Source: Candidatus Aminicenantes bacterium
GTDB taxonomy: Bacteria > Acidobacteriota > Aminicenantia > Aminicenantales > JAFGBC01
DNA length: 64,000 nt
Direction: 5' to 3'
Assembly: GCA_963702005.1 (NCBI GenBank)
Contig: OY969696.1
Location: 64,001-128,000 of the forward strand
Under the pieces are notes generated by a model that ran no database searches, was not told where the DNA came from, and saw only the letters and a program-made list of their open reading frames with translations. Both the position numbers and the translations under genes were made by a program. This document shows, one piece after another, positions 25,457 to 42,273 of this stretch. Every line of letters begins with the position of its first letter. Position 1 is the stretch's first letter.

Positions 25457-25531
25457 GGGCGATTAACTCAGGGGTAGAGTACTACCTTCACACGGTAGGA
25501 GTCACAGGTTCAAATCCTGTATCGCCCACCA
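25457..25531 (+). tRNA. tRNA-Val(CAC); probable integration site
   Basis: Cloverleaf: acceptor GGGCGAT/ATCGCCC, anticodon stem CTACC-TTCACAC-GGTAG, T-loop TTCAAAT, encoded CCA. Confidence 0.97.
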
Positions 25532-26645
25532 CTTTATTATCAACGACTTGCGCGATCGCGCGTCCCGGCAAAATGGCAGGTGTGCCCAAAACTGTGCCCA
25601 AACTCGGGCCGGGTAGCTGGCCGACGACGCCGTGAAGATGCTTGTCGCTCAGGTGGGAATAGATCTCCGTCGTCTTGATGGACTTATGGCCCAGGAGCTG
25701 CTGGACCGCCCGGATATTTCCTGTCCGCATGACCAGGAAACTGGCAAACGTGTGCCGCCAAGTGTGGAGATTGGCGTCCCGGATGCCCAGCCTGTTCAGA
25801 TGATGGCGAAAACGGGCCTCAAGCGAGTGAATTTTGATTTTTTTGCCATCAGCCTTGGTAAAAACCCAGTTCGATCTTCTCTTCTTGTTCAGGAGCATGA
25901 AAGAGACTGCATCATGGAGTGGGATAATCCGTTCCTCGTTCCCTTTGGGCTTCCAGAAGTCCTTTGGCCGGACAGTAAGTCTATGCGCTATAAGATCAAC
26001 GTCGCTCCATTCGAGATTGACCAGCTCTCCGATACGCATGCCCGTATAGAGGAGCGTAAGATAGATTTCCCCTACCCAATTATCGCCGCAGGTATCGAGG
26101 ATTAGGCCCACTTCGGCTTCGCTGAAGAAACGCGGATTCTTTTTCGCCGTGCTCAAGAGCTTGACCCTCCGGGCCGGGCTTTCCTTAAGGAAACCAAGCT
26201 CCACCGCCCGGTTGAAAAACCGCTTTATTCCCTTGAGCTCCGTGTTCACGGTCGAACGGGCAACCTGGCTTCCCTTGCGCGACGGGGACGGCGCCTTGAG
26301 CCGGGAGGCTACATAGCCGTCGACCATGGCCATGTCCACGTCCCGGAGGCATTTTACGTTATGCTTCTCGGAAAGGTATTTTACGAAATGGTTGAGCGCG
26401 ATCGTATAATTGTGGGCGGTCTTCGCAGCCTGCCGGGCCCGGACGTATTCGAGGAACTCTTTCTGGAATAGGCCCAGCGGGATTTTCTGTCCGGAGACTA
26501 GCTCGTTGCGGGAGATCTTGTAAAGAATTTCTCCGTAGGCGTCCTCCGCCTGCTTCTTTTCCCTGCCGAGGCTGCGCCGGACCCGCTGGCCGGACTGGTA
26601 GAAGGTGATATACCAAAGCTTGCCTCGTCTGTATAACTTGGCCAT
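25488..26645 (-). CDS. Tyrosine recombinase/integrase
   Basis: YTGMRIGE (R), KPKG (K), HTWRH (HxxR), LLGH (H), TEIY (Y); N-terminal arm-binding-like region; last residues read antisense through the tRNA. Confidence 0.95.
   Translation of the reverse strand: MAKLYRRGKLWYITFYQSGQRVRRSLGREKKQAEDAYGEILYKISRNELVSGQKIPLGLFQKEFLEYVRARQAAKTAHNYTIALNHFVKYLSEKHNVKCLRDVDMAMVDGYVASRLKAPSPSRKGSQVARSTVNTELKGIKRFFNRAVELGFLKESPARRVKLLSTAKKNPRFFSEAEVGLILDTCGDNWVGEIYLTLLYTGMRIGELVNLEWSDVDLIAHRLTVRPKDFWKPKGNEERIIPLHDAVSFMLLNKKRRSNWVFTKADGKKIKIHSLEARFRHHLNRLGIRDANLHTWRHTFASFLVMRTGNIRAVQQLLGHKSIKTTEIYSHLSDKHLHGVVGQLPGPSLGTVLGTPAILPGRAIAQVVDNKVVGDTGFEPVTPTV
25581..25603 (+). repeat. Tandem direct repeat TGTGCCCAAA x2, candidate integrase arm-type sites
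   Basis: TGTGCCCAAAAC-TGTGCCCAAAC about 50 bp from the tRNA 3' end, inside the int coding sequence. Confidence 0.6.
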
Positions 26646-33298: not shown

Positions 33299-33760
33299 AT
33301 GAAAAAATTCGGAGAGCTTCTAAAAGGATTTCGAGAAAGAGCCGGTCTATCTCAGTACGAGTTATCCGACCTGGTTAAAATCCACCCTTCCCATATAAGC
33401 AGGCTTGAAAGAGGGGAAAGGAAGCCGAGACTGAAGAACGTGATACGCTTCATCAATGCGCTTTGCCTTAACGAAGAAGACGGAAACAAGCTTCTTCAAG
33501 CGGCAGGCTATTCTTCGAAAATTAACAAACCCCTCGTTTTTCATTCGCCTTTAGCCTTATACAATTTTGATCCGGACATCGCGGATTTCGATGCGACGAA
33601 AATTAACAATCCGGCAATCAAAGCCGTTTATGAGGCGCTGTCCGATCCGGAGTTATCCACAGAAGCAAAAAAAGAAATTGCGGTATCAGTGAAATCTTTA
33701 GCAGATTGGCTTAGAGATAAGATGAAGAAAGAATATCTTTCCCAAGCGAAAAAGCATTGA
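33299..33760 (+). CDS. XRE-family HTH transcriptional repressor
   Basis: FGELLKGFRERAGLSQYELS...SHISRLERGERKP. Confidence 0.9.
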   Translation: MKKFGELLKGFRERAGLSQYELSDLVKIHPSHISRLERGERKPRLKNVIRFINALCLNEEDGNKLLQAAGYSSKINKPLVFHSPLALYNFDPDIADFDATKINNPAIKAVYEALSDPELSTEAKKEIAVSVKSLADWLRDKMKKEYLSQAKKH

Positions 33761-35022
33761 ACGATTCGTTTCCTGATTTCCTATCGCTCAGTCACGCCTC
33801 ATATATAAGTAAAAGCCAAGAGTCGACAGGATATTTTAGCCCTCCTTACTTCGCCTTTATTCCTCATAAACTCAAGTCCTTCGATTCATACGAGCTAAAC
33901 TGGGCCTACAGTTTCTGGCATGAATTCTGGCACATGCGGAACAAGCAATGGTGCTATTTGGGCTCTTACGAGCTGATCCTCAACTATATTGCCGAAGATC
34001 TTTTGCTTTATGCCGCCAGCTCATCAATTTCTGATAAGACTTCGTTACAAAATAATCGTCATTTGAAGAAAGCTCTTGACATCGTAGAAAAGCTCTATCT
34101 GCTTCATCAGGTTTCTACCGTAGCAAATGAATTATCCCCTACCTATTACTTGCTAAACGAACGAACCCAATCGATTGTCTCATCTTCCCTGCAGGAATAT
34201 ATCTTGTCCACTTATTTCCCAAAGAAGAAATTTACTTCCCAACATGTCGCGGAGTATGTCCAAAAACACGGGGAGATCTTGCTTCGCAAACTTGAGAATG
34301 AGCCAGCTACCATAAGAAGGCCCGAGCATATCGAAGCATTCGTTTTAGGGACCTCGATAATTAATAAATGGCGTGATGTCTCTTACATTGACTCGATTCC
34401 TCTCCTGAGCATGCATATCAATATCTCTTATCTCGATCTATTCGAAAAAAATTTTAAATCACTGAGAAATCTAATCAAAAGCCTCCCCTTGCTGCTCAAT
34501 CCCGATTACCGTTTAAAAAAGATGGTTAAAGAAGGCGCCTTGCTCGTTTCTAGGAACAGGGAAAAGAACGATGCTCTATTTGTCTCAAACCTGCTCAGAA
34601 TGGCAACTCACAAAGACCTGCCGGCCAGCCTCAGAAAGAACAGAGCGGACATTAAAAGCCGATTGGACGAGGTCGTCAAGAGTGAAAGGACCGAGCGTCC
34701 TTCTCCGCGCAGAAAAATAAGTCAGCCAATCTTGATGTTCCCCACCGAAGCCGGAGATCTCTTCATTACTGAACCGGTCTACAAAAGAACCAACAAGATG
34801 GAAATCGTTCAAAGGATGCTTTCCATTTGCTATGCATCCGAATTGCTGTTAAGGTTATCGAGTTATTTCAGATACTCAAATGATATGCTTAGGGCCATCC
34901 GCTTCTCGCTAGCTTTTTTGAAGCAGAAGGTTAAAACCCCTTCCCTAATTTACGAACACATAGAACAAATATTGAAAAACAGCTTTGACAAGAAGATTAT
35001 CAATAGAATTATCCCTGAATAA
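33757..35022 (+). CDS. Hypothetical protein with N-terminal HExxH motif
   Basis: FWHEFWH; TTGA overlap with the XRE gene. Confidence 0.6.
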   Translation: MNDSFPDFLSLSHASYISKSQESTGYFSPPYFAFIPHKLKSFDSYELNWAYSFWHEFWHMRNKQWCYLGSYELILNYIAEDLLLYAASSSISDKTSLQNNRHLKKALDIVEKLYLLHQVSTVANELSPTYYLLNERTQSIVSSSLQEYILSTYFPKKKFTSQHVAEYVQKHGEILLRKLENEPATIRRPEHIEAFVLGTSIINKWRDVSYIDSIPLLSMHINISYLDLFEKNFKSLRNLIKSLPLLLNPDYRLKKMVKEGALLVSRNREKNDALFVSNLLRMATHKDLPASLRKNRADIKSRLDEVVKSERTERPSPRRKISQPILMFPTEAGDLFITEPVYKRTNKMEIVQRMLSICYASELLLRLSSYFRYSNDMLRAIRFSLAFLKQKVKTPSLIYEHIEQILKNSFDKKIINRIIPE

Positions 35023-36090: not shown

Positions 36091-36309
36091 ATGACGCGTG
36101 CGAAAATTGATTTAGTCAAAAGGAAACTCGAAGCTTCGGGAATTGCATCCATGGCCTCACGCGACGTCATAGATGCAAGTAATACAAATAAGGCGGCCAA
36201 TGCATGTCAGCCGGCTTGTGAGGCCTCGTGCCCACAAAATTGCTCGTCAACATGTAATACATGTAGCCCAAGCTGCACAACATGCCAGACTGGTGGATCT
36301 AAAAAGTAA
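36091..36309 (+). CDS. Cys-rich RiPP precursor candidate A (degenerate Tat-like leader)
   Basis: GGGGAGGT RBS; core CQPACEASCPQNCSSTCNTCSPSCTTCQTGGSKK with 8 Cys; upstream of radical SAM/SPASM gene. Confidence 0.82.
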   Translation: MTRAKIDLVKRKLEASGIASMASRDVIDASNTNKAANACQPACEASCPQNCSSTCNTCSPSCTTCQTGGSKK

Positions 36310-36340
36310 TCTTTAATGATTTAGTTGAAAAGAGGTCAAC

Positions 36341-36565
36341 ATGACCAATGAAAAGATCGATTTAGTACGAAGGAAATTATTAAAGTCAGGGCTTGCCGCG
36401 ATAGCCTCGGGCGGCCTTGTCGGCGCTGCTATCCTTGCCACCCCACATAAAGCTTCGGCGAATTGTCCGAGCGTTTGCTCAACTTCGTGTCCCGGAGATT
36501 GCTCGGTAACGTGTAATACATGTAGCCAAGGTTGCTCAACATGCCAGACTGGATCTAGCAAATAA
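36341..36565 (+). CDS. Cys-rich RiPP precursor candidate B with twin-arginine-like signal peptide
   Basis: VRRKLLK, hydrophobic SGLAAIASGGLVGAAILA, ASA site; core NCPSVCSTSCPGDCSVTCNTCSQGCSTCQTGSSK with 8 Cys in the same spacing as A. Confidence 0.85.
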   Translation: MTNEKIDLVRRKLLKSGLAAIASGGLVGAAILATPHKASANCPSVCSTSCPGDCSVTCNTCSQGCSTCQTGSSK

Positions 36566-36796
36566 GCCTGGTCAGCGTAATTTAATATTTCAATGGCAGC
36601 TTAATGATATTTCTGCTTTGAATTAGCCAAATTAGGAATAAGCAGTGGGTTGCTATATTTAAAGGAAGAATGAGGTTTATTTATTGATCTTTTTTTTAAA
36701 ATTAGCGATGGATATTTGGGAACAACAACTATATTTAGGCAACAGTTATTATTTAATGCTCAATTTGAAAATATATGATAAAAAAAGGAGGATGGC

Positions 36797-38230
36797 GTGC
36801 TAAATCAAGATAAAATATACCTTATAAATCCAAATTATGGAATAAGGAATGAAAAGACCAAAATATTAATATATGAGCAGGATCCAACAGATGGCGAAAT
36901 AGTAAAGTACAATTGTTTTAATCCAATTTATGGAATTTTTCTATCATTATTTGATGGGAAGAATACGTTCAAGGAAATTATCCAATTATACAGTCATTTA
37001 ATCGGCTCAAACTCATCCTTTGAAGATAATGCAAAGGGAATTGATAATTATATAAATCTACTTGAATCGAATTTTGGTCCAGAGTTGTTCCTGGATAAAA
37101 ATCAAATAGAATTAACAAATGTTCCAGAATACGATCCAATAAACTTTATCATTGACAAAAACGATATAGACCTATCCAATTCTCGTTTATCGGCGCCACT
37201 GAGTCTGAACTATGACGTGACGTTCAAATGCCCAAGAAATTGTATTTATTGTTATGCCGAGAATAATTATGCTCCGAGGATGACATTGCTCCCTCTTGAA
37301 CGAGTCAAAGAAATTATTGATGAAGCGAAAAATATTGGAGTAAAATATATTATTCTTGGGGGTGGAGATCCCTTCTCAAGGAAAGAATTTATTAAATTAT
37401 TGTCTTTAATCATAGAGAATGAAATAAAATATTTCGTATCAACAAAATCGTATTTATCTGAATACGTGTGCAAAGAATTACAAAAAATAGGGATGTTAAG
37501 AATTCAGGTAAGCATTGATTCAGCAAATGAAAAAACAGCTGATTTAATGACAGGCAGCAAAGGCTATTTTAAGCAGATAATCAGCTCTATAAAGAACCTG
37601 CAAAATAGTGGAATTGCTGTCAGATGCAAGGCAATAGTAACATCGCTAAATTTCAGAGAGATACCAAACCTCCTTTCATTCCTAGACACGCTAGGAATAA
37701 GGACGATTCAAGTGACTGGATATGGCATGTCAATGTATAGGCATTCTGAAAGCTTATTTATTACGAAGGAAGGTGAAAGATGGCTTTCAGAACGAGTAAA
37801 TGAGTTCAAGGACTTACATCCACATATAAAGATTATTTATGGAGGATTCGGATCAGAGTATCTGACCAAAGAAGATAAAGAGAGGGCCTGGAAAGGAAGA
37901 GCAAAATGTAGTGCTGGCAGAAGCGCATTGAATATTATTCCCAATGGCAAAGTTTCTTTTTGCGAACAGCTCCCCTCCACACCTGATTTTATCTTCGGTG
38001 ACCTAGCAAAACAATCGATCTTTGAAGCATGGAATTCTGACCAGCTAAAAGAATTACTGCTCCCAGATAAAAATAATTTTAAGGGAACTCCGTGTTTTGA
38101 TTGTGAAGAATTTATTGAATGCAATTCAGGCATGGGGAGATGCATAAGAGATTCTTTCAACATATTTAGATCAAAATATGCGCCGGATCCAAAATGTCCC
38201 AGAGTTATACAACCCGTTAAGATGTCATAA
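36797..38230 (+). CDS. Radical SAM/SPASM peptide maturase candidate
   Basis: CPRNCIYC, GGGDP, QVSIDS; SPASM CSAG..NG.V..C...CFDC....C...RC...C; ~130 aa N-terminal RRE/PqqD-like extension. Confidence 0.92.
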   Translation: MLNQDKIYLINPNYGIRNEKTKILIYEQDPTDGEIVKYNCFNPIYGIFLSLFDGKNTFKEIIQLYSHLIGSNSSFEDNAKGIDNYINLLESNFGPELFLDKNQIELTNVPEYDPINFIIDKNDIDLSNSRLSAPLSLNYDVTFKCPRNCIYCYAENNYAPRMTLLPLERVKEIIDEAKNIGVKYIILGGGDPFSRKEFIKLLSLIIENEIKYFVSTKSYLSEYVCKELQKIGMLRIQVSIDSANEKTADLMTGSKGYFKQIISSIKNLQNSGIAVRCKAIVTSLNFREIPNLLSFLDTLGIRTIQVTGYGMSMYRHSESLFITKEGERWLSERVNEFKDLHPHIKIIYGGFGSEYLTKEDKERAWKGRAKCSAGRSALNIIPNGKVSFCEQLPSTPDFIFGDLAKQSIFEAWNSDQLKELLLPDKNNFKGTPCFDCEEFIECNSGMGRCIRDSFNIFRSKYAPDPKCPRVIQPVKMS

Positions 38231-38290
38231 TTTGATAATTAAATCAAATTTATTTTATTGCTCTACGTTTTTTCCTGAAGGAGGATTTGG

Positions 38291-39445
38291 ATGCACAAGA
38301 AGATTCTGTTTATAGGATTAACTATAATTATCTCTACGTCATGTCTAGCTAACGATAGTAGACATTTCATTTTAGGCAAAGAACAGGGAGAGGGCAATTT
38401 AATATATCCATGGCATATTCAAGAGGGACCCGATGGAAACATATATGTTATGGACCAAGGTGATGCATATATAAAAGTATATTCTCCTGAAGGAAATTAT
38501 TTAAAGAGAATTGGAGGAAAAGGCCAAGGGCCAGGAGAATTTCAAAGAGCAGATGGCGCCAATTTTGGTTTTACACTGGGAGGCAAATTATATTTTACTG
38601 AATTCTTCGGAGGGCATAAGTGGATTACTTTGATCGATTTATCGGCGCGGCTAGATAAAGTTATTCATCCGGACATTGAACAAGCGTACGGTATTAACAA
38701 TTCTTTTTCTCTCGAAGATGGCGGATTTATTATCGAGGCCTGGTATAGTTCGATTCCAGAAATAAAAAGGGATTACTTTTTATACCATTATCCTCAATCT
38801 CTTTTAAGAATCGATTCAACCGGGAAGATCATTTCTGAAATAGTAAAGGCAAACTATTTTAAAACAATTTCCGCTTCAAGTAGCGGAGCGGATCAATGGC
38901 TTCCATATGTTCCAGCCTTCGCATGGACACCATATGATAAAGAATTAATACTCTTCTCGGATGGGCTTAATAATAAACTTAAGGTCTTTACTTACTCAGG
39001 ATCGTTTATTAATGAAATTAGGACTGAGCTTCCTGAACCAGAACCAGTTAAAGATAGTGATCTAAATGAGTGGAGAAGAACTAGGAGGGAAGCTATAAGA
39101 GATAGTTCGTGGTTTAATACGTTTGGAAAAGTGATTAATCAATATAAAAATTCCCTTTATGATAAGAAGCCAATTTTAGACAATATTTTTTCAACCCCTG
39201 ATGAGAATATCCTTATTGAAAGGTCGGTAAAAGAGGAGGGAACAAAAGAATTCTGGTTAATCGATAGAAATGGCAAAACAATCATTAAGACAGATATAGC
39301 TACTGAAAGATTAAGGATAGCTAAGCATTTCATATTCTTCATAGTAAAGGATGAAGAAGAAAATATTTTTGTTATTTGTTTGAAAAGAGTCGGGAATGAA
39401 AGCGAAGATCTTTTTACGGCACATAATATAAAAATATCGGAATAG
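38291..39445 (+). CDS. Secreted 6-bladed (NHL/TolB-like) beta-propeller protein
   Basis: Signal peptide; GNIYVMDQG..IKVYSPEG.Y..RIGGKGQGPGEF. Confidence 0.85.
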   Translation: MHKKILFIGLTIIISTSCLANDSRHFILGKEQGEGNLIYPWHIQEGPDGNIYVMDQGDAYIKVYSPEGNYLKRIGGKGQGPGEFQRADGANFGFTLGGKLYFTEFFGGHKWITLIDLSARLDKVIHPDIEQAYGINNSFSLEDGGFIIEAWYSSIPEIKRDYFLYHYPQSLLRIDSTGKIISEIVKANYFKTISASSSGADQWLPYVPAFAWTPYDKELILFSDGLNNKLKVFTYSGSFINEIRTELPEPEPVKDSDLNEWRRTRREAIRDSSWFNTFGKVINQYKNSLYDKKPILDNIFSTPDENILIERSVKEEGTKEFWLIDRNGKTIIKTDIATERLRIAKHFIFFIVKDEEENIFVICLKRVGNESEDLFTAHNIKISE

Positions 39446-39655: not shown

Positions 39656-40114
39656 TCATTCCATTTTCAACTTACAAAGAATTGTTATATGCGTTCCTAG
39701 CGCTTTATTTATTTTCCTCAATTTGCTCTCGATAAGATAAATATAATCATTTTTCTTAATCTTACACTTACGAAGATTAAATTGACAGTTTTTTAAATCC
39801 ACCGGGGAACAGACAAAATATTTCTTAAATTGCTTAATAAAATTCGAATAGTCGCCAAATCCCGATTCAAAGCATATTTCTGTCGTCGTTGTTTTAATAT
39901 TTGATCTCATTAAGCGTTTTGCTTCATATAATCGTCTTAAAATTACATATTTCTTAATTGTCAAACCAGTCTCTCTATGAAATACTCTCATTAAGTAATA
40001 TTTACTCAGATTGCATGCCTCAGATATTTCATTAAGAGAAATATCTGAATTAAATTCCTCGTTAATAAAAGATAGAGCATCGCGCACTCTTTGTGAAAAG
40101 ATACAATCTTTCAT
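39656..40114 (-). CDS. Stand-alone AraC-family HTH regulator
   Basis: ISLNEISEACNLSKYYLMRVFH.ETG, EICFESGFGDYSNF.KQFKK. Confidence 0.85.
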   Translation of the reverse strand: MKDCIFSQRVRDALSFINEEFNSDISLNEISEACNLSKYYLMRVFHRETGLTIKKYVILRRLYEAKRLMRSNIKTTTTEICFESGFGDYSNFIKQFKKYFVCSPVDLKNCQFNLRKCKIKKNDYIYLIESKLRKINKALGTHITILCKLKME

Positions 40115-40159: not shown

Positions 40160-40885
40160 TCATGCGCCCCAGGCCATATAGCCGAGCAATATAAATCCAA
40201 ATATATACGCCCAGGTCTGGAACGGCGGATAAATCCATGGAATAGATCTTGAAAGCTGCGCTAGCCGTGCGGCTTCCTTCGCGTCTTTAGAGGCGGCTTT
40301 GCGTTCGCTGAGATTTGCGGTGATCGACGGCAGAGCCGGCCTAAATCCTTTCCAGCTTCCTTTGCCTATCAAGAGGTCTGCTATCTGGCCGGAACGAGTT
40401 TCATAAACCGGCTTCGGATCGTCGTTAGATATTGGGCGGACGAAGTCAAAATAGGTGCTTATCAAGATGAGATATGCCAATAGCGGAACGCAGAAATTCC
40501 AAAATCTCAGCACGAACGCCGCAATCGCTTGACGCGGGTCCTGATGTCCATGCGAGCCACGCGGCGGGCTAAGAAGCACTTCGATGTGTTCGGAAGGCTC
40601 CTTTATTTCATGCTGCGCTGCGGCACGCAGGTTGAGAAGTTCGCGCAGAGCCAAATAAACGTTGCAGAAGGCTCCTAAAATAAAAATCGGGCCGAAGATG
40701 GGAAGGAATCCAACGTTGATGCTGCCGGCGAGCCAGCTCACTGGTGACTCGACCTCCCACGTCGGCAGCCGGCTGACGCCCGCGATAAGAAGAACGGTTC
40801 CGCTGGTGACCATGGCCAAACGGCCGAATCTCGCCCTGGCCGCGACATATGCTTCGAGAACATCCATTTTCTCAGCCTCCCTCAT
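40160..40885 (-). CDS. Hypothetical membrane protein
   Basis: Four hydrophobic segments; ATGA overlap with the EEP gene. Confidence 0.55.
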   Translation of the reverse strand: MREAEKMDVLEAYVAARARFGRLAMVTSGTVLLIAGVSRLPTWEVESPVSWLAGSINVGFLPIFGPIFILGAFCNVYLALRELLNLRAAAQHEIKEPSEHIEVLLSPPRGSHGHQDPRQAIAAFVLRFWNFCVPLLAYLILISTYFDFVRPISNDDPKPVYETRSGQIADLLIGKGSWKGFRPALPSITANLSERKAASKDAKEAARLAQLSRSIPWIYPPFQTWAYIFGFILLGYMAWGA

Positions 40886-42273
40886 CTATGGTGCGTCGGC
40901 GGATTGCATTTCGAGCAGGGCTCGTAGCCCTTTCTCTTCGCCTCGTTCAGGGTAATCGCTATTTTGCTCTGGCTGAGATACTGGCAGCCGCTCCTGTGAT
41001 ACTTGGTGCCCGTCTCGGTTACATAGACGATTACGTCTTCGCCGGGCCTCCTTAAGGCCTCATTGGAATATCCAGAGCAGCCGGCCGAATTATAGGCGCG
41101 CACGCGAAAGGCGTATGCGAAGTCCGATGAAAGGCCAGAGTTCGTATAGGTCTCGCCATCGGCCGGGACCGTGGCTATCTGAGTCCAGTCGCCGCTTGAT
41201 TTCCGTTCTATTCTGAAGCCGGTTTCGTTTGTGGAATTATCATGCCACGCGAGTTTGACGGAAGTCGACGAAAGCGACGTGGCGGCCAGGCCCGAAGGCG
41301 CCCTGGGCAGCCCTGCCAGCGGCAGGAGCTCGATTACGACGGGCAGATGGTCCGAAGCCTCATATAAGGCGTTAGCAATCTTTATGGGGACGGCCTTGTT
41401 CGGAAGGACATTCACCGCTTTATTTAAATGCTTGCCGTCGTTGCCGTAGGCCTTGTAGCTGTTCTTGACGTAGGACAGCTTCGGGCTAGTGAGCAGGCCG
41501 TCCGATACCAGGACGAAGTCGAAGCGGTCGTCAAGGCCGCCGGAGGCGAAGCCCCCGCCGAGTTTCGCGTGAGTGGACTGGGTATGGAGGACCGCGAAAG
41601 CGGAGCCGTCGTGCCATTTCCCGGGCTTGCTGACCGGGTCGTTCACCCTGCCGTCGTTGTCGGCCTGGCTTCCCGTCAGGACCTGGTAGGCGGGCTCGTC
41701 GCTTTTGTAGAGGTTGAGGTCACCGCACACGAGAAACAGGCTGTTCGCCTTGAGGCCGTTCAGATAACTCCTAAGGGTCGTGGCCTCTCTCTCCCTCTCC
41801 TTCTCATAGCCCTGGCTAGCTTTTAAATGTGCAGAATAGACCCGGAAAACCGTTCCCGCGCCCGGTCCGGATTTCACTTTCAGGACGTACTCCGAAACGT
41901 TTCTCGGCGTATCCTGGATTTCCTTGTGCGAGACGAAGCCAATCGTCGATTTCCTATAAAAAAGGGCGTTGTCCGTATCCGTGTCCGGGTCGTCATAGAA
42001 CGGCGCCATCGCATACTTCCCCGGAGACGTGAAATTAATGACCTGGCTAAAAAACTCGTTTGCCCCTTCGAGGCTGAGCATCTCCTGGACGACGAGCACG
42101 TCCGGGCCGAGCCTGTCGACCACGAGGCGGAAGTCGTCCTCCCTGGCCGTTCCCGAGGACCCTGGGAAGTTCAGCAGGTTCCAGGTGGCGAGCTTGACGG
42201 CCTCCGAGGCGAGAGGCAGGAGGAAGAGGGCCAGAACGACGAAGAGAGAAAGAAAAAGCTTCCTTTTAGGCAT
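40882..42273 (-). CDS. Secreted endonuclease/exonuclease/phosphatase with FN3 and C-terminal zinc-binding domain
   Basis: ATWN, VQE, HLKAS, GDLN, DRFD, SDHLPV; FN3 W.DNSTNETGFRIER; VYVT.TG.KYH..GC...CSKC. Confidence 0.88.
   Translation of the reverse strand: MPKRKLFLSLFVVLALFLLPLASEAVKLATWNLLNFPGSSGTAREDDFRLVVDRLGPDVLVVQEMLSLEGANEFFSQVINFTSPGKYAMAPFYDDPDTDTDNALFYRKSTIGFVSHKEIQDTPRNVSEYVLKVKSGPGAGTVFRVYSAHLKASQGYEKEREREATTLRSYLNGLKANSLFLVCGDLNLYKSDEPAYQVLTGSQADNDGRVNDPVSKPGKWHDGSAFAVLHTQSTHAKLGGGFASGGLDDRFDFVLVSDGLLTSPKLSYVKNSYKAYGNDGKHLNKAVNVLPNKAVPIKIANALYEASDHLPVVIELLPLAGLPRAPSGLAATSLSSTSVKLAWHDNSTNETGFRIERKSSGDWTQIATVPADGETYTNSGLSSDFAYAFRVRAYNSAGCSGYSNEALRRPGEDVIVYVTETGTKYHRSGCQYLSQSKIAITLNEAKRKGYEPCSKCNPPTHHR

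Follow-up and report, generated by a model that had tools for sequence, protein, structure and literature searches.

The 64,000-nucleotide stretch of DNA analysed here (the window) appears to carry an acquired, minimal RiPP-type cassette, in which a radical SAM enzyme would modify two small Cys-rich peptides, A and B, with a signal-like leader, and the exported product would meet a co-encoded, secreted β-propeller; we place the probability of this reading as a whole at roughly 55%. The coordinates and gene content of the cassette stand as given in an earlier reading made from the letters of the window (the sequence-only reading), and several of its more specific claims, on the leader and on export above all, have had to be revised.

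The cassette lies in DNA of unusual composition. GC content is 0.58–0.655 in 2-kb windows up to 26 kb and drops to 0.34–0.43 at 34–40 kb. A tRNA-Val gene identified by ARAGORN (25457-25531, forward strand) is overlapped by a tyrosine integrase gene on the reverse strand (25491-26645; Phage_integrase, E 6.2e-29), and together these likely mark the start of the island that bears the cassette. As context, the same low-GC block contains a gene for an XRE-type HTH regulator (33299..33760, forward strand; HTH_3, E 1.7e-12) and, at its downstream edge, one for an AraC-type HTH protein (39656..40114, reverse strand; HTH_18, E 1.7e-17). These two and the other island genes, encoding ORFs of 421 and 124 aa, were not found in the related loci described below, with the exception of a single weak match to the XRE protein (34% over 41 aa, in L202); small XRE-like HTH ORFs, the N-termini of which were judged by eye, adjoin L195, L196 and L202. 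The radical SAM enzyme was not found in either of two congeners (83% and 92% complete), and horizontal acquisition of the cassette, on a foreign low-GC island, is predicted as part of our best explanation. A scan of ten ORFs in the interval 33.3–42.3 kb revealed neither an ABC transporter nor a peptidase family nor a GG motif, in agreement with the sequence-only reading, which had seen no exporter, leader peptidase or double-Gly site next to the peptides.

Peptides A (36091..36309, forward strand; 72 aa) and B (36341..36565, forward strand; 74 aa) are encoded in tandem, each by an ORF with its own RBS. The start of A, an ATG at 36091, is backed by GGGGAGG 7 nt before it, and the start of B by AAGAGG at 6 nt. 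Both carry eight cysteines with the spacing Cx3Cx3Cx3Cx3Cx2Cx3Cx2C, which in B follow a leader ending in ASA. Six-frame translation of the 4.31-Mb genome gives 8.62 million residues, in which this exact spacing occurs twice, in A and B themselves, and the shared spacing is therefore not a product of chance. The cores had been described as identical, which holds for the positions of the cysteines and not for the residues around them, the two peptides being 55% identical along their entire length. Across the family loci, peptide cores with different leader types have in common a C-x-x-C-x-x-G-type terminal ending. A phmmer search of 1.84 billion representative proteins with B matched only B, A and P0047; the last was rejected as a relative, since it consists of 2229 aa with Ser/Thr/Gly repeats and a single Cys and is a compositional false match. 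Between B and the enzyme gene lies a 230-nt spacer that folds no better than shuffled sequences (z -0.79), a promoter scan gave 15 sites where 15.8 were expected, and terminator-like sites numbered 7 against 3.8 expected. The sequencing runs that contain this DNA are wetland metagenome runs from one study, with no RNA runs listed.

The next gene (36797..38230, forward strand; 477 aa) encodes an RRE–radical SAM–SPASM peptide maturase, recognised from Pfam, its AF2 model and Foldseek. The Pfam matches are to Radical_SAM (E 3.9e-26) and SPASM (PF13186; E 6.9e-10), and in 32 relatives the CX3CX2C motif (C145/C149/C152) and six cysteines of the SPASM region (C371, C389, C433, C442, C449 and C467) are invariant, with C436 kept in at least 90%. 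In the AF2 model (pLDDT 93.8), residues 7-93 form a strand-rich and three-helix domain, with strands in 7-57 and helices in 43-93. The best Foldseek matches were SuiB, SkfB, PqqE and CteB, and those covering the full length, at 14-19% identity (E 3.6e-19 to 3e-15), include the RRE-bearing SuiB and CteB. An RRE-like N-terminal domain is thus supported by the predicted fold, as the sequence-only reading had proposed for this SPASM enzyme; a PqqD Pfam match occurs in only 2 of the 32 family members. A search of 5.8 billion proteins yielded about 35 relatives, none of which attains an NCBIfam cut-off. The enzyme itself reaches no cut-off among the best 25 of its 68 NCBIfam matches (AlbA, 61.7 bits against 850; StsB, 57.1 against 625), and membership of the TIGR04115-type maturases, with which a comparison had been suggested at the outset, did not hold, with 20.1 bits against 350. 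Judged by sequence, the family to which the enzyme belongs is rare and has no name.

Further members of this family provide the broader comparison. A profile search of genome contigs with the single enzyme as query gave no match. Alignment A1 proved too diverse for pattern scans and A2 was used instead; the contig scan with A2 returned 160 loci, among which only L007, L008, L009 and L087 are family members, the remainder, generic radical SAM/SPASM proteins of 20–30% identity, being left out. Small ORFs of the CxxxC type lie within 2.5–3.5 kb of the family enzyme in 13 of 16 loci, with none seen near it in L008, L009 and L201, so that the proposed pairing of precursor and maturase is upheld. 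We suggest that the neighbouring enzyme takes A and B as its substrates and would act on them in the cytoplasm, and that the Cys-rich core is most likely cross-linked by radical thioether formation of the sacti- or ranthipeptide kind.

The same peptides might be read as exported metal- or Fe–S-binding mini-proteins, or as lipid-anchored ones, which the radical SAM enzyme does not modify or serves only in cofactor loading. A Tat-like signal with eight Cys in 27 residues is what one would typically see in a cofactor protein, B has a weak match to TIGR02811 (formate_TAT, the small ‘formate dehydrogenase region TAT target’ family; E 0.001), and Lnt lies within the L170 cluster and Lgt beside the L203 protein. 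Against this, the recurring neighbour of such peptides, signal-less ones included, is an RRE-bearing SPASM enzyme, their Cys spacing is not ferredoxin-like, and the charged residues that separate the h-region from the first Cys, with a poor lipobox fit, argue against a lipid anchor; we regard this explanation as extremely improbable.

The leader of B consists of RRKLLK, 21 uncharged residues (mean Kyte–Doolittle 1.27), HK and the final ASA, i.e. a basic n-region, a weakly hydrophobic h-region, a basic c-region and an AxA site, a combination that A does not have. Peptide A has a B-like n-region in which KR replaces RR (V-K-R-K-L-E-A, compared with V-R-R-K-L-L-K in B) and has lost the hydrophobic core, its longest uncharged run being 9 aa and its maximum 12-residue Kyte–Doolittle value 0.66; despite this loss it retains an intact Cys core and RBS. 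The window's enzyme groups with those of L087, L170 and L183 (SH-aLRT 98, in the quick tree on which the support for this clade rests), and a signal-like leader is present in 4/4 loci of this closest clade and in 0/12 others. Uncharged runs of 12-22 aa with maximum hydrophobicity of 1.65-2.18 were found in 6 of 7 close-clade peptides; in ten peptides from the other clades, the leaders of which are of the ordinary hydrophilic type, the maximum does not exceed 1.35. Two further close-clade peptides, both with RRKM leaders, came from a profile search, and the RR pair is kept in 6/9 close-clade peptides and absent in 3/9. Three positions are invariant across the seven aligned close-clade peptides: the K that follows the basic pair, a Gly, and a Lys of the c-region. 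From these comparisons, the signal-like leader is a real, clade-specific trait and not the accident of a single gene.

We therefore propose a scheme in which the usual cytosolic leader is replaced in this clade by a signal-peptide-like one, in which a basic motif, [R/K][R/K]K-hydrophobic, precedes an uncharged stretch rich in Gly, Ala and Leu and then a basic c-region, with the ASA end in B. The conserved n-region would probably be read by the RRE, and the hydrophobic part would probably carry the peptide across the membrane after modification. Tat would be the best candidate route for B. TatC is present in this genome (205.6 bits) and in 5/5 related hosts tested, and an unrelated genome of another phylum contains a CXXX-repeat protein led by a canonical SRRKFLK, the Tat consensus being S/T-R-R-x-F-L-K. 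The Tat-like look of the B leader, noted from the first, is borne out by RRKLLK, the uncharged stretch and ASA and falls short in profile searches, which place 7 to 25 host signals above cut-off, depending on the model: B is absent from the 37 genome matches to TIGR01409 at E<=10 and scores 12.2 bits against a cut-off of 22.7 with PF10518 (rank 31 of 34).

The sequence-only reading went further and took the Tat signal to double as the RiPP leader, of which the clade-conserved, signal-like character survives; B fails the Tat HMMs, A has KR and no h-region, and RR is not universal in the clade. In its full form, this would be a natural RiPP with a working Tat leader. The RRE, bound to the twin-arginine n-region, would retain the precursor in the cytoplasm until cross-linking of its core, comparable to the way in which cofactor enzymes are held back by Tat proofreading chaperones. 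The knotted peptide would then be exported by Tat and its leader removed by signal peptidase I, so that no dedicated protease or pump would be necessary. Peptide A, with its n-region kept and its hydrophobic core lost, would either remain in the cell or leave together with B, and the NHL propeller, secreted alongside, would be the docking partner of the product in a two-part extracytoplasmic module. We think this fuller version unlikely. No description of a natural Tat-led RiPP precursor was found in the literature searched, and in the accessible portion of PMC5686179 the use of Tat for thioether peptides is discussed as speculation only, and attempts at it are reported to have failed.

The further claim, that the peptide relies on host export alone, finds no support in the two sister loci that combine this leader type with sufficient flanking sequence, L087 and L170, where the gene order continues immediately downstream of the enzyme with ABC-2 permeases (two in L087; two and an ABC ATPase in L170). 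Because of these permeases, export may proceed by a dedicated transporter lacking in this cassette. It is possible, if somewhat unlikely, that the hydrophobic leader is a recognition or membrane-targeting element only and that export belongs to an ABC-2 transporter lost here, the cassette therefore being export-inactive or reliant on a transporter elsewhere in the genome. The sub-threshold Tat scores of B and the loss of RR from some close-clade peptides would fit, as would the invariant K and G beside the basic pair, expected of an RRE-binding motif. A three-part signal peptide, with ASA in B and basic c-regions, would however be odd for a cytosolic tag, the other clades of the enzyme family manage with plain hydrophilic leaders, and ABC-2 systems adjoining RiPPs are often immunity pumps.

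The last gene of the cassette (38291..39445, forward strand) encodes a six-bladed NHL/DUF5128 β-propeller, predicted to be secreted on the basis of Pfam, its AF2 model and its N-terminal signal. The DUF5128 (PF17170) match scores 26.1 bits against a cut-off of 22.9 and covers residues 48-85 only; the model (pLDDT 90.9) has a six-bladed NHL-type fold, with the solved BF0058 (4raa) among its structural matches. The N-terminus is Sec-like, as by appearance are those of most of 32 aligned relatives, so that the description as a secreted propeller stands. It was also considered as a lipoprotein and rejected, since there is no lipobox in this protein and the pattern occurs in 1/32 relatives (P0071). 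A propeller is clearly linked to 5 of the 16 family loci and weakly to 3 more. In L196, L200 and L202 propellers 31-44% identical to that of the window (E 5e-59 to 4e-108) directly adjoin family enzymes that are only ~30% identical, in L195 one lies 3.2 kb away, and L197, L198 and L199 have weaker DUF5128-like neighbours. These other propeller-linked loci all belong to a single taxonomic family and so are not independent. In the scheme we favour, the modified peptide would meet the co-encoded, Sec-secreted propeller outside the cell membrane, possibly for binding, processing or protection; in the sequence-only reading it had been put forward as a candidate receptor or immunity protein. A complex prediction with propeller residues 22-384 and the B core (38-74) gave no answer (score 0.02) and is evidence neither way.

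In quinohemoprotein amine dehydrogenase (QHNDH), a radical SAM-cross-linked gamma subunit sits with a 7-bladed β-propeller subunit outside the cytoplasm, together with a dihaem subunit. By the same logic, the cross-linked peptide here could join the secreted propeller outside the cytoplasm as a small subunit or prosthetic partner and not be a free antibiotic, an idea that gains from the recurrence of the trio of peptide, radical SAM/SPASM enzyme and secreted propeller in divergent enzyme clades. In the portion of PMC13692751 available, the RRE of QhpD engages the QhpC leader and the enzyme installs Cys–Asp/Glu thioethers. The propeller of the window is however of the 6-bladed NHL type and not the 7-bladed QHNDH beta subunit, its neighbours include no haem subunit or cytochrome, and QhpD is not among the best 25 NCBIfam matches of the enzyme. 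Close relatives of the propeller, a family of >300, occur without any family radical SAM enzyme in 5/5 Acidobacteriota genomes examined, and such an assembly is very unlikely.

RiPP pathways are normally thought to require their own leader protease and exporter. If a general-secretion signal, possibly Tat, does serve as the leader in this clade, it would offer a cheaper route for RiPPs and a compact three-gene unit for the secretion of cross-linked peptides, and the connection of post-translational cross-linking to quality control at export could be tested directly. The recurrent pairing with a secreted NHL/DUF5128 propeller is an initial clue to what this large, functionally uncharacterised family does, and points to an extracytoplasmic target or partner.

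Considering known systems, the enzyme shares its three-domain fold with the sacti- and ranthipeptide maturases SuiB, CteB, SkfB, AlbA and PapB, the last of which, in the available part of its description, links Cys to Asp within repeated motifs. It also shares their CX3CX2C motif and SPASM cysteines (six invariant, one near-invariant), and, as in those systems, a Cys-rich precursor is encoded just upstream. In contrast to them, the leader is signal-like, a propeller partner is present and the cassette contains neither protease nor exporter; identity to these maturases is only 14-19%, and none of their NCBIfam models is reached.

The CXXX-repeat radical SAM systems (TIGR04114, 04115, 04116, 04117 and 04118), reportedly defined in silico by Haft and Basu in 2011, likewise have small Cys-Xaa-Xaa-Xaa targets beside a radical SAM/SPASM enzyme. 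Peptide B scores 31.3 bits with TIGR04117 over leader and core (34.6 in a six-frame search) against a cut-off of 50, A scores 7.3 bits, and peptides of the relatives give weak, sub-threshold matches to TIGR04117, 04118 and 04114. No match to the accessory protein TIGR04116 was found at E<=1 in the whole genome (94% complete), so that the window differs from these systems in maturase, target and accessory protein alike. In 401 genomes of the phylum of L056 (an uncultured Desulfobacteraceae MAG), none had TIGR04117 above cut-off and one scored 28 bits (L203); that one has no TIGR04115 member, and its best match to the enzyme family of the window, at 140.8 bits and with stops, is not a clear member. 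On these profile scores, the cassette weakly resembles the CXXX-repeat families yet falls below the thresholds that define them, and the view that no characterised family of this type exists is fair for experimental work and has to be qualified for families described in silico.

The HXS antiphage system is a proposed parallel, in that a signal-led ribosomal product is matured by cytoplasmic radical SAM enzymes and acts outside the cytoplasm; the accessible part of PMC13128918 describes HxsA as a signal-peptide protein matured by such partners and active in the periplasm. Compared by description, HxsA is larger, with HxS repeats and a peptidoglycan-binding domain, is not Cys-rich and has no propeller. 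QHNDH maturation also has a small Cys peptide, an RRE-bearing radical SAM/SPASM enzyme and a propeller, the last being of a different fold class. The cassette would thus be best described as a variant within the Cys-rich radical SAM RiPPs, for which we infer the chemistry, the route of export and the role of the propeller.

The cassette at 36091-39445 comprises four genes, all on the + strand, of which the first two encode small cysteine-rich peptides. Peptide A (36091-36309, MTRAKIDLVKRKLEASGIASMASRDVIDASNTNKAANACQPACEASCPQNCSSTCNTCSPSCTTCQTGGSKK) begins at an ATG at 36091, with GGGGAGG 7 nt upstream of the start, and peptide B (36341-36565, +, MTNEKIDLVRRKLLKSGLAAIASGGLVGAAILATPHKASANCPSVCSTSCPGDCSVTCNTCSQGCSTCQTGSSK) is preceded by AAGAGG at 6 nt; the two are 55% identical and have in common the cysteine spacing Cx3Cx3Cx3Cx3Cx2Cx3Cx2C. 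When the whole 4.31 Mb genome was translated in six frames (8.62 million residues), this exact spacing occurred twice, in A and B themselves, and the same scan gave only two more stop-free runs with at least six Cys at 2-4 spacing. The sequence-only reading, that these are two precursors with identical cysteine spacing, is thus correct, and the likeness is real and not due to chance. Peptide B is separated from the third gene by an AT-rich spacer of 230 nt (36566-36796), in which a long hairpin is followed by a T-run. An attenuator here is unsupported, since the folding energy is no better than that of shuffled sequences (z -0.79).

The third gene (36797-38230, +) encodes a protein of 477 aa with Radical_SAM and SPASM domains. 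Among the best 25 of its 68 NCBIfam matches none came near its cut-off, the top one being the mycofactocin protein MftC (103 versus 265 bits), and TIGR04115, the CXXX-repeat maturase model described in silico by Haft, gave 20.1 bits against a cut-off of 350. The enzyme family is rare: a search of 5.77 billion clustered proteins returned 35 members, P0001-P0035, at E 2e-56 or better, with the next match at 1e-26. C145, C149 and C152 are invariant in the 32 aligned members, as are C371, C389, C433, C442, C449 and C467, and C436 is nearly so. The AF2 model (pLDDT 93.8, pTM 0.91) has a strand-plus-helix N-terminal domain followed by a TIM-like core, and its best full-length Foldseek matches are SuiB, SkfB, PqqE and CteB, of which SuiB and CteB carry an RRE. 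Pfam detects PqqD in only 2 of the 32 family enzymes; the reading of an RRE-like N-terminus on a SPASM enzyme is borne out, resting on the two domains, the modelled N-terminal fold and the full-length SuiB and CteB matches.

We compared 16 loci encoding family enzymes: that of the window; L087, from a metagenome (enzyme 48% identical to the window's); L170 and L183, from genomes G027 and G937 of the same class (44-45%); L171, from a genome of the same order (G366); L007, from a Bacillota MAG; L008 and L009, from two Pseudoalteromonas; and L195-L202, from five genomes of one taxonomic family of the same class, f10. Small Cys-rich ORFs of CxxxC type adjoin the enzyme in 13 of these, L008, L009 and L201 having none by the filter used, and across leader types the cores end alike, with C-x-x-C, two residues and then Gly. 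The pairing of enzyme and peptide is therefore conserved, and this is the main support for an enzyme-substrate relation. Both Pseudoalteromonas loci (L008, 3474-8676; L009, 2994-8288) have a tandem run of three paralogous family enzymes, with ABC transporter genes after it. Tandem duplication is also seen in L197 (4974-8051) and L198 (5764-8844), where the enzymes share about 30% identity with that of the window and are preceded by one precursor gene and a gene that weakly resembles DUF5128.

The setting of the cassette points to a foreign origin. The block that contains it has a GC content of 0.34-0.43, versus 0.58-0.655 upstream, and the fall occurs in steps downstream of a tRNA-Val gene (25457-25531, +) that a tyrosine integrase gene (25491-26645, -) overlaps from the opposite strand; a large integrated island therefore probably starts there. 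Of 339 genomes of the class 10 have the family enzyme, as do 3 in a sample of 401 from the phylum, whereas it was not found in either of two congeners, 83% and 92% complete. All this is most simply read as horizontal acquisition. The neighbouring genes encode an XRE regulator, an AraC-type HTH protein, a secreted nuclease-FN3 protein and ORFs of 421, 124 and 241 aa that match no family; none of them is a transporter or known leader peptidase, in agreement with the earlier remark that neither lies adjacent. At 33299-35022 the 421-aa ORF begins inside the XRE HTH gene and shows, by eye, an H-E-x-x-H motif (HEFWH), an arrangement that recalls the repressor/metalloprotease pairs of mobile elements; the 421-aa protein could be a peptidase for the cassette. 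The nuclease-FN3 gene (40882-42273, -), just outside the low-GC block, encodes a secreted protein in which endonuclease/exonuclease/phosphatase and fibronectin-III domains are joined to a tail at the C-terminus that is rich in Cys.

The peptide leaders fall into two kinds that follow the enzyme clade. The window's clade takes in 10 rows of a quick tree of 49 (SH-aLRT 98), in which P0001, P0002, P0006 and P0007 stand in as their loci and P0019 and P0024, shorter than 400 aa, were left out. The sister clade takes in P0010-P0016, among them one protein named as Bacteroidota. In the four loci of the window's clade, six of the seven peptides combine a basic n-region with 12-22 uncharged residues rich in Gly, Ala and Leu (highest Kyte-Doolittle value over 12 residues 1.65-2.18), and a basic stretch can be seen by eye between that run and the first Cys. 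In the ten peptides of other clades the leader is hydrophilic, its hydrophobicity peaking at no more than 1.35. Searching with a profile built from the seven clade peptides added P0174 and P0175, which both carry RRKM; across the nine, the basic pair is RR in six, KR in peptide A, and RK and EK in one each. Three residues are invariant in the seven aligned peptides: the Lys that follows the pair, a Gly five positions further along and a Lys in the c-region. This clade-wide shape, together with the invariant residues, argues that the signal-like leader is a selected trait of the clade.

The proposal that this leader is a Tat signal in peptide B has evidence on both sides. The Tat consensus is S/T-R-R-x-F-L-K, and a basic residue in the c-region is a Sec-avoidance feature; peptide B has V-R-R-K-L-L-K in its n-region, a weakly hydrophobic h-region, a basic c-region residue and ASA ahead of the core, and it weakly matches the small Tat-target family TIGR02811 (E 0.001). 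The RR motif, h-region and ASA of the proposal are thus present, but both Tat-signal profiles place B below acceptance: it is absent from the 37 TIGR01409 matches at E<=10, of which 25 exceed the cut-off, and scores 12.2 bits on PF10518 against a cut-off of 22.7 (rank 31 of 34). TatC is encoded in the window's genome and in all five related hosts examined, so its presence does not discriminate. Two further observations weigh against Tat. In peptide A, substitutions have removed the h-region, the longest uncharged run being 9 aa, while the ribosome-binding site and all eight Cys are kept. In L087 and L170, the two sister loci whose flanks are long enough, the enzyme gene is directly followed by two ABC-2 permease genes, and L170 has an ABC ATPase as well. 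We put true Tat export of peptide B at a little under even odds, and export by some general route would be somewhat more likely; the Tat proposal is appealing, but it is not proven.

Two loci deserve mention here. L170 (1739-10159) has three signal-led precursors and the enzyme, then a 296-aa secreted ORF and the two permeases, with genes for Lnt (apolipoprotein N-acyltransferase), a B12-binding radical SAM protein, a NEW3-domain protein and the ABC ATPase also downstream. In the unrelated genome G1166, L203 (561-2099) encodes a protein of 155 aa in which a canonical Tat motif, SRRKFLK, is joined to a long C-T-x-x (CXXX) repeat (28 bits on TIGR04117), a combination that speaks for the Tat reading. 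The next gene is Lgt (Pfam E 1.4e-50); a second copy of the 155-aa protein, upstream, runs off the contig, and no maturase was found in this fragmented genome. With Lnt in L170 and Lgt in L203, one may ask if the first Cys carries a lipid; the match to a lipobox is poor.

The fourth gene (38291-39445, +) encodes the secreted propeller of the sequence-only reading, a description that holds up: the product passes DUF5128 (Pfam), is modelled as a six-bladed NHL-type fold (AF2 pLDDT 90.9) and, like most of 32 aligned relatives, has an N-terminus of Sec-type appearance, a lipobox-like pattern occurring in only one relative, P0071. Its best fold matches are the NHL domains of Brat and TRIM proteins, followed lower down by virginiamycin B lyase, Bacteroides BF0058, peptidyl-hydroxyglycine lyase and lactonases, a list that leaves function unsettled. 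In L196, L200 and L202, propellers 31-44% identical to the window's directly follow enzymes of about 30% identity, and in L195 one of 24% lies 3.2 kb from the enzyme; the enzymes of L197, L198 and L199 have flanking genes that resemble DUF5128 more weakly, with Pfam E-values of 3e-4 to 5e-3 that fall below cut-off. The link is thus clear in 5 of the 16 loci, or 8 counting the weak ones, and outside the window all such loci belong to f10, though to two enzyme clades. L087, L170, L171, L007, L008, L009 and L201 have no propeller, and L183 is too short to judge. In L195 (2857-5848) the propeller is separated from the enzyme and its precursor by genes for an APH-like kinase and a secreted S8 subtilase, the latter possibly the leader protease of that variant. 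The propeller family is far larger than that of the enzyme (304 proteins at E<=0.001), and all five Acidobacteriota genomes examined that have a propeller relative lack the family enzyme (best score 109 bits, versus at least 289 for family members). The link recurs, yet the propeller also occurs alone; the partnership is therefore recurrent and probably functional without being obligate.

By analogy with SuiB-, CteB- and PapB-type enzymes, the enzyme would form thioether cross-links in the peptide cores in the cytoplasm, its RRE recognising the conserved n-region of the leader; the modified peptide would then be exported and meet the propeller outside the cytoplasm. A literature search over the main text of papers found no natural Tat-led RiPP, and on Tat for lanthipeptides PMC5686179 offers speculation only. 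Among described systems, the nearest in kind are the sacti- and ranthipeptides and Haft's CXXX-repeat families, whose models for maturase, target and accessory protein all fail here. By logic, the cassette is near to QHNDH maturation and to the HXS system, in which a signal-peptide protein is matured by radical SAM partners (PMC13128918). Set beside these, the cassette is a real, rare and horizontally acquired variant of the Cys-rich radical SAM RiPP systems, with two unusual, conserved traits, namely its signal-like leader and its propeller partner.
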